DNA of 64,000 bases from Thermoproteota archaeon (lineage in GTDB: Archaea; Asgardarchaeota; Jordiarchaeia; Jordiarchaeales; Freyrarchaeaceae), in NCBI GenBank assembly GCA_029258835.1, contig JAPDJY010000035.1, positions 77,302-141,301 of the forward strand, given 5' to 3'. Below are positions 23,613 to 54,854 of the stretch, piece after piece; the stretch's first letter is position 1, and each line of letters begins with the position of its first letter. Under the pieces are notes generated by a model, which ran no database searches, was not told where the DNA came from, and saw only the letters and a program-made list of their open reading frames with translations. The translations under genes and the position numbers were made by a program.

Positions 23613-23726
23613 TCTAAGACGCTCCTTTCATTCAGGCTATTTTAGGCAAGCTTAAAATAAAACTTTTACCGCTTTTAATCCTCGATAGTTAAAAGGGCCA
23701 TAATGTTTGCTGGAGGCGGGAGCATT

Positions 23727-24581
23727 GTGAAGGGATGGCTATTCGAAATCTTCTCCTCCTACCAATCCTTACTAAAATAAGGGGTGAAGGGGAGGGTGGA
23801 AGCGTAAAGGGGTCAAATTACGGGAAGCGGACGATATAGGCCATCCGAGGGGCCGTCGACTTATCCGCTTCTCGGGGTGTAACATATGGTTAGGAGAGTT
23901 TGGTAGGCGAGGGTGTGGGTGGTGCGACACCTTAAACGGCGCCAGACGCCCCACGCCGCTCAGCCTAAATCTGAATATTTGAAGATATCAACAGTTGAAG
24001 AAGGCATGTTTCAAGTGAAAAATCCCGTGGAGCCAGGACTAGTTGTAGAATACGTTAAACGTGTCCACTCACCAGATGTTCACGCGATTTCCCTGACAGG
24101 AGGGGAACCATTATTTCAACTAGAGTTCCTCGCTTCAATAATGAAAGCCCTTAAAGGGGAAGGATACAAAACATACTTGGAAACCAACGGTTCAATGCCG
24201 GAACGAATGGATAAAATAGCATTCTTAACAGACTATTGTTGCTGTGATATTAAAGATGAAACGGCAGGTGCAGCAGAAAACTGGAGACGGCTCGTTGAGC
24301 TGGAGCTAAAAACAATAAGTATACTTATAGATAATGGTGTCAGCGTCTTCGCTAAGGTTGTCGTTACTTCGGAGACGAAGCCTGAAAACGTTGAATGGTA
24401 TGCATCAAAGCTTTCAAGGATGGACTGCCCGCTATGTATTCAACCGGTAACGCCTATAAGGAATTATAGGCCGCCTTCACAACGCCAACTCTTCAGCTTC
24501 ACGGAGGCGGCAGCAAAACATCTTGGGAGCGATAATGTGGCCATATCTGTTCAAGTACACAAGTTTTTGGGTATACCTTAA
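23727..24581 (+). CDS. queE: 7-carboxy-7-deazaguanine synthase split by three BHB micro-introns; join(23727..23765,23789..23837,23861..23928,23946..24581), 263 aa
   Basis: GGAGG RBS at 23712-23716 and GTG at 23727. Spliced product MKGWLFEIFSSYQGEGGSVKGSNYGKRTIFIRFSGCNIWLGEFGRRGCGWCDTPHAAQ..., then SLTGGEPL, YLETNG, CDIK, CIQP, VQVHK. Operon with DUF366 and queD. Confidence 0.9.
23766..23788 (+). other. queE intron 1 (23 nt, BHB)
   Basis: Central helix TACC(23760-63)/GGTG(23783-86); bulges AA^T and AA^G; intron stem CCTTA/TAAGG; contains in-frame TAA; splice gives CAA|GGG = Q|G of SYQGEG. Confidence 0.88.
23838..23860 (+). other. queE intron 2 (23 nt, bulge-helix-loop variant)
   Basis: 11-bp exon helix CGGGAAGCGGA/TCCGCTTCTCG; central helix CGAT/GTCG; 5' bulge AT^A; 3' loop AC^TTA; intron stem GGCC/GGCC; splice gives T|TT = Phe of TIFIRFSGCN and removes a TAG. 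Confidence 0.88.
23929..23945 (+). other. queE intron 3 (17 nt, relaxed BHB)
   Basis: Exon helix GGTGTGGG/CCCACGCC; central helix TGCG/CGCC (3 of 4 pairs); bulges AC^A and AG^A; intron stem CC/GG; splice gives GAC|ACG = D|T of CGWCDT and restores frame. Junction could shift by 1-2 nt. Confidence 0.78.
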
Positions 24582-53338: not shown

Positions 53339-53477
53339 AGTAACCGTTATTAACGAGGAAGAAGGCGTTAAATATAAAAGAATCGTTATGCTTTCAACAT
53401 TAGAAACATCGAAGCATAGTTTTTAAATGTTTTTATACGTGAAGTCGTAATTGCTTAACCGTCTACTCACTAAGTTA

Positions 53478-53492
53478 GAGAAAACTTATATC
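53478..53492 (+). promoter_or_regulatory. BRE/TATA of the SRP RNA gene
   Basis: GAGAAAACTTATATC lies about 27 nt upstream of the SRP RNA 5' end. Confidence 0.6.
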
Positions 53493-53517
53493 TTGTTTTT
53501 TAACTACTTTATTACTT

Positions 53518-53873
53518 GGGCGGTGGGTCTAGGCGGGCTGCTAGGGGTAGCCTGACGGAGGGTTTATCCCTCCTGACCGCAAATCCTCTATATGGCGGGC
53601 CGAAAGCCGGCGTGAGGCACCTCCAACCCGCTGTTTTGCCCTTCACGTTAAGGCGATGAAAACTCGTCCCGGAGGGCTGGCGGTGGCCGTCCACTCTCCG
53701 TAGGGAGGGTGTGTTCGGCCTTTACCAGGGGAACCGGCTAGGCCCGGGAGAGCGGTGGATGCCTCGATGGAGCACCCTAACCCTGGACGTTCAGTGCTTC
53801 CGGGAGCGCGGGTTTGAGACCAAACGTGAAGGGGGTAGTGGGAAGGAGTGTCGAGCGCCGGGACCCACCGCCC
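53518..53873 (+). ncRNA. ffs: Archaeal SRP (7S) RNA, intron-containing
   Basis: GC-rich; helix 1 GGGCGGTGGGTC/GACCCACCGCCC; Alu loops TAGGGG/CCTCTA; CGATGA..CTCGTCCC; helix 6 with GTAG tetraloop; helix 8 AGGCCC...GGAGCA. Confidence 0.93.
53751..53768 (+). other. BHB intron (18 nt) in SRP RNA helix 8
   Basis: Central helix CGGG(53745-48)/CTCG(53763-66); bulges AG^A and AT^G; intron stem GCG/TGC; splice yields AGGCCC-GGGA-GGGAGCA. Confidence 0.82.
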
Positions 53874-53915
53874 TCTAATTTCTGAAAAAATACTCTTTAA
53901 TTTGAAAAAGTGAAG

Positions 53916-54854
53916 TTAGCTGCTCTCTCCTAGAAGTTCGCCTAAAAGCTGACATGTTTTGCATATTTCCTCTGATGACGGCTCCCCACACCTAATACAC
54001 GTTTTAAGGTACGCTTCTTCTTCAGGTATTTTCTCAAGTATTTTAGTATATATTCTTAAGATGCTGTATTTTGTTCCGGGGTGATCTCTTTCAAGCCTGT
54101 TAAGGAAGTTTCTCACATCTTCTCTATACGCTTCCTGATGGTAGGGGCATGGTGTTTGATGATGATCGATCTGGTTGAAGTGCACGTAGAGGGCGATTTC
54201 TTCCTCAGGTATTTCTTTGAAAGGCTTAACGCGAGGCACCAATCCTTCTATTGTTAATTTTTTTCTTGGTCTATTTCTGAGGAAACGTACAATGTCTCCC
54301 CTTAAGATATTCATAAGGATAGTTTGGGTTTCGTCGTCTAAATTGTGAGCTGTCGCTACCACGTCCGCACCAACCTGCCTTGCAAGCATGTTTATGGCTT
54401 TTCTTCTCAGAACGCCGCAATAAGTACATGCTTTAAGCCGTTTTTCACCGAACTTTTCTTGAGCTATTGAAACTAGCTCATCTAAAGTGTAGCTAAAGAG
54501 TTCTTTAAATGAGGACTTTCTCCATTCAACCCCAAGTTTCTTAGTTGCCTTTTTTATTATTCTCAGGGCGTCCTCCCTGTAACCAAGTATCCCTTCATCA
54601 ACTGTTATTACCACTAATTCGCTTTCCGGATATTTCTGCTCTATTTTGTTAAGGATGTAAAGCAGCGCCATGCTGTCTTTTCCTCCGGAAACGGCAATGG
54701 CTACCCTGCTGTCCGGTTGTAGCATTTTGTATCGAGAAATGGTTCTTCTAACTTTTTTCTCAAGGGATTCCGTAAAACATTTTTTACATAATTTTTCGCC
54801 TGAGTATGGACGGTAAATTACTGCTTCACGGTGACAGTACATGCATGTGCTCAA
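53916..54854 (-). CDS. tRNA 2-thiolation protein (TtuA/NcsA/Ctu1 family)
   Basis: CMYC..LCKKC, SGGKDS PP-loop, CTYCGVLRR, TAHNLDDE, CPY, CIRC..CKTC. Confidence 0.9.
   Translation of the reverse strand: MSTCMYCHREAVIYRPYSGEKLCKKCFTESLEKKVRRTISRYKMLQPDSRVAIAVSGGKDSMALLYILNKIEQKYPESELVVITVDEGILGYREDALRIIKKATKKLGVEWRKSSFKELFSYTLDELVSIAQEKFGEKRLKACTYCGVLRRKAINMLARQVGADVVATAHNLDDETQTILMNILRGDIVRFLRNRPRKKLTIEGLVPRVKPFKEIPEEEIALYVHFNQIDHHQTPCPYHQEAYREDVRNFLNRLERDHPGTKYSILRIYTKILEKIPEEEAYLKTCIRCGEPSSEEICKTCQLLGELLGESS

Follow-up and report, generated by a model that had tools for sequence, protein, structure and literature searches.

Circularly permuted SRP RNA genes have been described in Thermoproteus tenax and T. 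uzoniensis (Plagens et al. 2015, eLife, PMC4731332), and they resemble the locus examined here in that the SRP RNA matures via a BHB motif that is cut by the tRNA-splicing endonuclease, as found there in vitro, with joining by RtcB proposed (PMC4731332). The host archaeon is likewise rich in tRNA introns and has a heterotetrameric EndA (PMC4731332), and ancestors with simple BHB introns were postulated (PMC4731332). Introns of tRNAs are paired with bases of the anticodon loop, and their splice sites fall in the bulges; the rule implied by this geometry is that each 3-nt bulge is cut by EndA behind its second base (PMC4090602). Nearly all tRNA genes of Jordiarchaeia and Atabeyarchaeia have introns (Valentin-Alvarado et al. 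2024, PMC11291895; Goswami et al. 2026 preprint, 10.64898/2026.10.13.758758), and the EndA enzymes of Asgard and TACK archaea have the (alpha-beta)2 form with a broad-specificity L1 loop (PMC5829648).

The stretch of DNA analysed here (the window; 64,000 nt) includes an SRP RNA gene that is very probably interrupted, in the GNRA tetraloop of helix 8, by an 18-nt archaeal BHB intron that is excised by EndA, with the exons joined by RtcB. To our knowledge, tRNA-type introns had been seen almost exclusively in tRNA and rRNA, a single mRNA case aside, and use of the tRNA-splicing machinery by SRP RNA is known only from the permuted Thermoproteus genes.

The SRP RNA gene and the insert in helix 8

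The SRP RNA gene exceeded the gathering score of Rfam family RF01857 over the full model (145.6 bits against 96.5 bits) and was the sole match to this family in the 2.72 Mb genome, a MAG that is 94.7% complete. A second, intact SRP RNA gene, whose expression would according to the original prediction have spoken against the intron, was not detected at this completeness of the genome. The SRP54 and SRP19 genes are intact in the genome. The genes neighbouring the SRP RNA gene, on the opposite strand, encode an RFC small subunit, a TIM-barrel protein, a TtuA-like PP-loop ATPase and an M50 peptidase, and are ordinary chromosomal genes. A TATA-like sequence, CTTATATC, was found ~30 nt upstream of the probable 5' end of the SRP RNA (53518), preceded by a purine-rich GAAAA, and is a candidate promoter element of the gene. 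Elsewhere in the window (23679-24581, + strand), the N-terminal motifs of QueE (radical SAM), namely ...FEIFSSYQ, GEGEGG, LIRFSGCNI and C-x-WCDT, were seen in three different reading frames upstream of a long ORF at 23907-24581.

In the alignment to RF01857 the gene has two insertions, one of 20 nt in the Alu domain and one of 21 nt in place of the model's 3 nt in the helix-8 loop. The features of the gene are as follows (positions in the window).

53485-53492, + strand: TATA-like element CTTATATC, a candidate read from the letters
53518-53873, + strand: possible extension of the terminal helix of the SRP RNA (GGG/CCC)
53521-53870, + strand: SRP RNA gene (Archaea_SRP; Rfam RF01857, 145.6 bits, E 2e-33, model positions 1-317)
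53521-53750, + strand: 5' exon, ending in AGGCCCGGGAG; RNA contigs reach 53750 and resume at 53769
53557-53573, + strand: extra hairpin GGAGGG-UUUA-UCCCUCC between Alu-domain helices 3 and 4, the 20-nt RF01857 insertion; unspliced
53745-53748, + strand: 5' strand (CGGG) of the central 4-bp BHB helix, exon sequence
53749-53751, + strand: bulge 1 (AG^A), with the 5' splice site after 53750, as in the RNA junction
53751-53768, + strand: BHB intron of 18 nt, AGCGGTGGATGCCTCGAT; left out in RNA run X6, kept in DNA runs X8 and X9
53752-53762, + strand: intron hairpin (inner helix h'; pairs G52-C62, C53-G61 and G54-U60, loop 53755-53759)
53763-53766, + strand: 3' strand (CUCG) of the central helix, intron sequence
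53767-53769, + strand: bulge 2 (AU^G), with the 3' splice site after 53768, as in the RNA junction
53769-53870, + strand: 3' exon, starting GGAGCA; GGAGCACC follows 53750 in X10, and the X6 contig continues to 53859

The letters run in the order AGGCCCGGGAG (53740-53750), AGCGGTGGATGCCTCGAT (53751-53768) and GGAGCA (53769-53774), and the BHB insert is present at the helix-8 loop just as originally predicted, with the CGGG/CTCG pairing, the AG^A and AT^G bulges and the short stem. CGGG and CUCG form four pairs (C-G, G-C, G-U and G-C), and this central 4-bp helix lies between two 3-nt bulges on opposite strands. The same CGGG (53745-53748) doubles as the closing C and the GGG of the mature GGGA loop. 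Both cut sites, after 53750 and after 53768, obey the EndA bulge rule, and the order of helix, bulge, hairpin, helix and bulge known from tRNA introns (PMC4090602) is also that of the insert in the SRP RNA.

Removal of the 18 nt gives AGGCCC-GGGA-GGGAGCA, a helix-8 tip with a GNRA loop that is identical to that of intron-less relatives, which read AGGCCCGGGAGGGAGCA. The GNRA loop, its CCC/GGG closure and the AGG/AGCA symmetric loop were all found only when 53751-53768 was left out. The outer exon-exon helix h is weak, with one or two standard pairs (C44-G70, or C44-G69 and C43-G70 with a 2-nt bulge), and beyond it lies the non-canonical symmetric loop of helix 8. Because this outer helix has only one or two standard pairs, the 3' splice site would fit a relaxed BHB half of the HBh' kind rather than the strict hBHBh' form.

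Nearest-neighbour folding of the local region did not favour the BHB (-1.2 to -4.7 kcal/mol), the minimum free energy (MFE) structure being a different fold, a continuous extended hairpin at -11.9 kcal/mol, and the MFE of the region was no better than that of shuffles (z +1.41). Thermodynamic folding was rejected as a test of the BHB, as BHB bulges and the non-canonical pairs of helix 8 are poorly modelled, and the result is a caveat and not a refutation.

RNA and DNA contigs across the insert

The stretch was contained in 17 public runs from 14 studies of sediment, marine-sediment and hydrothermal-vent metagenomes, including two metatranscriptomes from one marine-sediment sample for which there are DNA runs too. 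Logan contigs from the two RNA runs (X6 and X10) and from two DNA runs of the same sample (X8 and X9) were aligned to positions 53451-53940, within which the RNA contigs cover 53527-53859. A 309-nt contig from X6 extends over 53533-53859 with 0 mismatches and with exactly 18 letters missing at 53751, and a contig from X10 stops at 53750 and then reads GGAGCACC, which corresponds to 53769-53776. GGGAG is thus joined to GGAGCA in both metatranscriptome runs. The DNA contigs of X8 (53530-53779) and X9 (53622-53916) span the site without a gap and keep the 18 nt.

The position of the deletion is unambiguous, as a shift by one base alters the product, and with only 4 nt in common between the flanks a de Bruijn assembler would not pass over the segment. 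The 18-nt intron is excised in vivo at exactly the predicted bases. The check for RNA junction reads that had been proposed with the prediction gave contigs lacking exactly 53751-53768 in RNA and retaining the 18 nt in DNA, and the predicted product of cleavage and ligation, CCC-GGGA-GGG, was recovered as a junction in two metatranscriptome runs and matches the intron-less relatives. This RNA evidence consists of contigs at a depth of about 3-4 from one sample in one study, which are silent on the efficiency of splicing and on the fraction of unspliced RNA, and RNA libraries may contain DNA.

The Alu-domain insertion of the same transcript served as an internal control. The hairpin at 53557-53573 is flanked by a repeated UGAC and was kept in both RNA contigs, and the 20-nt insertion was for this reason rejected as a second intron. 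At the same place in the Alu domain, families f1 and f2 have a hairpin whose stems covary. Being kept in the RNA contigs, the hairpin of the window gene is an expansion rather than an intron, and not every insertion relative to the Rfam model is removed.

Introns at the helix-8 site in other archaea

Among 40 relatives, the same bond was found to be interrupted in three genomes of the same family (G001-G003), in five of the sister family in the same order (G005-G008 and G010) and in one of another family (G036). The intron is present in 4/4 genomes of the family with an SRP RNA hit, that of the window (G000) included, and in 5/5 hits of the sister family.

Two pattern scans were run over one genome per GTDB species. 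The first pattern specified only the exons and the initial A of the intron, and its hits showed the same geometry as those of the second, which required C-N-N-G-A-N and was therefore subject to ascertainment. Matches in Asgard archaea came from Jordarchaeum/Jordarchaeia, Freyarchaeota (including the closed genome CP147778), Baldrarchaeota and two 'Promethearchaeota' MAGs, and further matches came from MAGs whose record titles place them outside Asgard (Bathyarchaeia/Bathyarchaeota, Thermoprotei, Methanomethylicia and Nezhaarchaeales). Most matches were confirmed by Rfam as lying within SRP RNA genes. MAGs labelled Bathyarchaeia, Thermoprotei, Methanomethylicia or uncultured archaeon carry BHB introns of 17-39 nt at the helix-8 site (L097, L098, L100, L101, L060/L061 and L088). 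With its DNA scoring below the Rfam SRP threshold, the Nezhaarchaeales match (L103, 15 nt) was left out of the confirmed set.

The helix-8 intron is therefore not specific to Asgard archaea, the taxonomy of the non-Asgard MAGs being that of their record titles only; two of them (G041 and G042) were placed outside Asgard by record titles and by a disjoint set of relatives. When 30 relatives of one Bathyarchaeia-labelled MAG were searched, the intron was found in three more genomes (G042, G171 and G183), and 20 of 24 full-length SRP RNAs read without it. The intron is not peculiar to the genome of the window: several lineages of Asgard archaea and of Thermoproteota-labelled MAGs have one at this site too, a wider distribution than was visible to the original prediction.

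Three bacterial pattern matches (L099, L102 and L104) gave no hit to an SRP RNA family and were treated as chance. Two of these, from Eubacteriales and Thermotaleaceae MAGs (L099:2943-3040 and L102:3146-3243, both on the - strand), share a stretch …GTTGTTATTTTAGGCTCGGGAGACAT…GGAGCA…GGTAA. This shared Firmicutes stretch had no hit to any Rfam family, despite matching the degenerate pattern, and probably represents conserved coding or leader sequence that has nothing to do with SRP.

In a sample of 151 genomes from the Asgard phylum, the intron was found in four families (f1, f2, f15 and f20) and was absent from every genome read, one to a few each, of 17 families (f3, f4, f6-f10, f12-f14, f16, f19, f21-f23, f25 and f27). 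Family f18 has an empty loop site and a different, putative helix-8 intron instead. Here, a 31-nt insert (L029:1702-1732 in G033) separates CCAG from GCCC nine bases upstream of the window-type site, and its MFE fold is a BHB with a GGCC/GGCU helix, AG^U and AA^G bulges and a long inner hairpin. Removal of this insert restores AACCAGGCCAGGCCCGGAAGGGAGCA, and the position is a candidate second intron site in helix 8 of the SRP RNA.

In total, 21 distinct introns of 15-39 nt were found at the helix-8 site of the window gene. The AG^A and A-N^G bulges are invariant across all introns found; in the 21, the first base of the intron is A and the last two are A and any base. All four pairs of the central helix with the exon CGGG form in 19/21 introns (with CUCG, CCCG, CUUG or CCUG), and a stem directly inside the bulges is present in 20/21, with 3 bp in the window gene and up to 10 bp in relatives. 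These inner stems sum to 90 contiguous bp against 14.4 +/- 4.7 in shuffles, none of 5000 of which reached 90, and their sequences are unrelated between lineages (GCC/GGC, UGGA/UCCA, AGGAGUU/AACUCCU, CAAU/AUUG and others). The BHB geometry of the insert is more than chance. Interrupted genes score 98-169 bits with RF01857, whereas most uninterrupted relatives score about 160-195 bits, and the intron explains why SRP RNA genes score low with Rfam in the genomes that carry it, and possibly why some are missed.

Splicing enzymes, alternative explanations and known systems

The genome encodes two EndA homologues and one RtcB (607 bits), and so has both a splicing endonuclease and a ligase. The catalytic EndA alpha subunit (190 aa) aligns over its full length with its counterpart in the heterotetrameric enzyme of Aeropyrum pernix, the catalytic chain 3P1Z_B, with an E value of 4e-46. 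Its catalytic His is kept in the motif GPGIDHAP, where it aligns with that of the H-to-A mutant 3AJV, and a Lys is kept that aligns to position 44 of the A. pernix chain and is presumably the Lys of the Crenarchaea-specific loop. The second EndA paralogue has both EndA domains and an Ala at the position of the catalytic His, and it would be, as expected, the structural beta subunit. The groups with (alpha-beta)2 EndA, Asgard and TACK, are the two groups in which the SRP RNA intron was found.

The genome was also examined using ARAGORN in intron mode, and no more than 23 tRNA candidates were called, of which 18 have dubious 'introns' and 5 have none. The output was noisy, and it suggests that most tRNA genes of this genome are too interrupted for calling, as published for Jordiarchaeaceae. 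It is consistent with heavily interrupted tRNA genes, but was rejected as evidence as too noisy to count.

The anatomy of the insert, its conservation and the spliced product in RNA were observed directly and, taken with the genes above, point to EndA and RtcB as the enzymes that would act on the SRP RNA intron. In the primary transcript, exon CGGG would pair with intron CUCG, with a 3-nt bulge after each strand and the short intron hairpin closing the motif. The (alpha-beta)2 EndA would cleave after 53750 and after 53768, RtcB would ligate the exons to give CCC-GGGA-GGG and with it a normal helix-8 tip, and RtcB would probably circularise the excised 18-mer. The mature SRP RNA would be linear and about 332-338 nt in length, with the GGGA tetraloop exposed.

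Helix 8 binds the SRP54 M domain, and its GNRA tetraloop promotes formation of the complex between SRP and its receptor. For this reason the unspliced form is expected to be defective, and the SRP54-binding helix, and its tetraloop in FtsY activation, would likely work normally in the spliced RNA only. SRP assembly would then very probably depend on the tRNA-splicing machinery, and protein targeting would do so with it. Of this part of the original prediction, the spliced product, the cut rule and the EndA and RtcB genes are borne out; the dependence itself is what we infer from them.

It is very unlikely that the RNA contigs derive from a co-occurring strain with an SRP RNA gene that lacks the 18 nt in its DNA, the copy in the window being unspliced or not the expressed one. 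Metagenomic samples hold mixtures of strains, the depth of the RNA contigs is low, and a third X6 contig, from a relative, runs straight from 53750 into GGAGCA. However, the 309 nt of the X6 contig match the window gene with 0 mismatches, both DNA runs of the sample show only the form with the insert, and the intron was found in 4/4 and 5/5 SRP-hit genomes of the family and sister family. Loss from DNA at exactly the BHB cut sites would itself imply reverse transcription of spliced RNA. Retention of the 18 nt in the mature SRP RNA as a lineage-specific extension of the helix-8 tip is highly improbable, given that they are gone in two RNA runs. SRP RNAs do carry such expansions, including the one retained in the Alu domain of this gene, and the MFE fold is a continuous extended hairpin, but an extension would replace the conserved GNRA loop, and in inserts of 15-39 nt it would have no need to keep the 3-nt bulges unchanged and the 4-bp helix at a constant spacing.

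Removal of the insert by a route other than EndA and RtcB, such as other RNases with a ligase or self-cleavage, is hardly conceivable. At 18 nt the insert falls far short of the length of a group I or group II intron. Its two cut sites follow the EndA rule, 21 introns share the geometry, and the genome encodes EndA alpha and beta as well as RtcB; on the other side, the outer helix is weak.

A BHB intron processed by EndA and RtcB is most simply seen as one of the numerous short introns of this type that lineages can tolerate when their EndA is permissive. One strand of the central helix and two of the bulge bases come from the exon itself. A hairpin inserted there would therefore be spliceable as long as it ended in C-N-N-G-A-N, and this may be why introns recur at the helix-8 site. 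That the intron is no neutral passenger but old and maintained by selection, either predating the split between Asgard and Thermoproteota or fixed repeatedly at a single site, with SRP assembly gated by splicing, appears unlikely. If it were so, SRP54 could not use the RNA before EndA and RtcB had acted, and protein targeting would be coupled to tRNA maturation in close relatives of eukaryotes.

The original prediction knew of no internal intron in helix 8, and this agrees with full-text literature searches, in which no paper describing an internal SRP RNA intron was found and whose coverage left out most subscription journals. The kind of intron is known, but SRP RNA is new as its host, and within the reach of these searches the case is unpublished. 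A plain internal intron is thereby found in the RNA core of a universal protein-targeting particle, at the tetraloop that activates the SRP receptor, and the picture of Asgard archaea would be extended to one in which cut-and-rejoin RNA splicing is routine for non-tRNA genes.

Watanabe in 2002 and Yokobori in 2009 reportedly described BHB introns outside tRNA in Crenarchaeota, in rRNA and in the cbf5 pre-mRNA. These are likewise EndA-type introns in non-tRNA transcripts, but the host gene is another one, and in the SRP RNA it is a functional tetraloop that is interrupted, at the same site in two phyla. The non-canonical and multiple tRNA BHB introns of Asgard archaea and Thermoproteales share with the SRP RNA intron the motif, the size range and the presumed enzymes, and the SRP RNA intron is also found in the lineages richest in tRNA introns (Jordiarchaeaceae and Freyrarchaeaceae, and DXJG01, where their load is elevated); the Asgard tRNA introns differ in their host RNA, which is tRNA there and SRP RNA here. 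SRP is not mentioned in either of the two reports on these tRNA introns (PMC11291895; 10.64898/2026.10.13.758758).

Thermoproteus has a permuted SRP RNA gene, in which leader and trailer form the BHB and from which a circular product results (PMC4731332), whereas the window gene is colinear, its BHB is internal at the helix-8 tetraloop, and the spliced RNA would be linear. The helix-8 intron thus supplies the 'simple BHB intron' intermediate that was postulated by Plagens et al. (PMC4731332).
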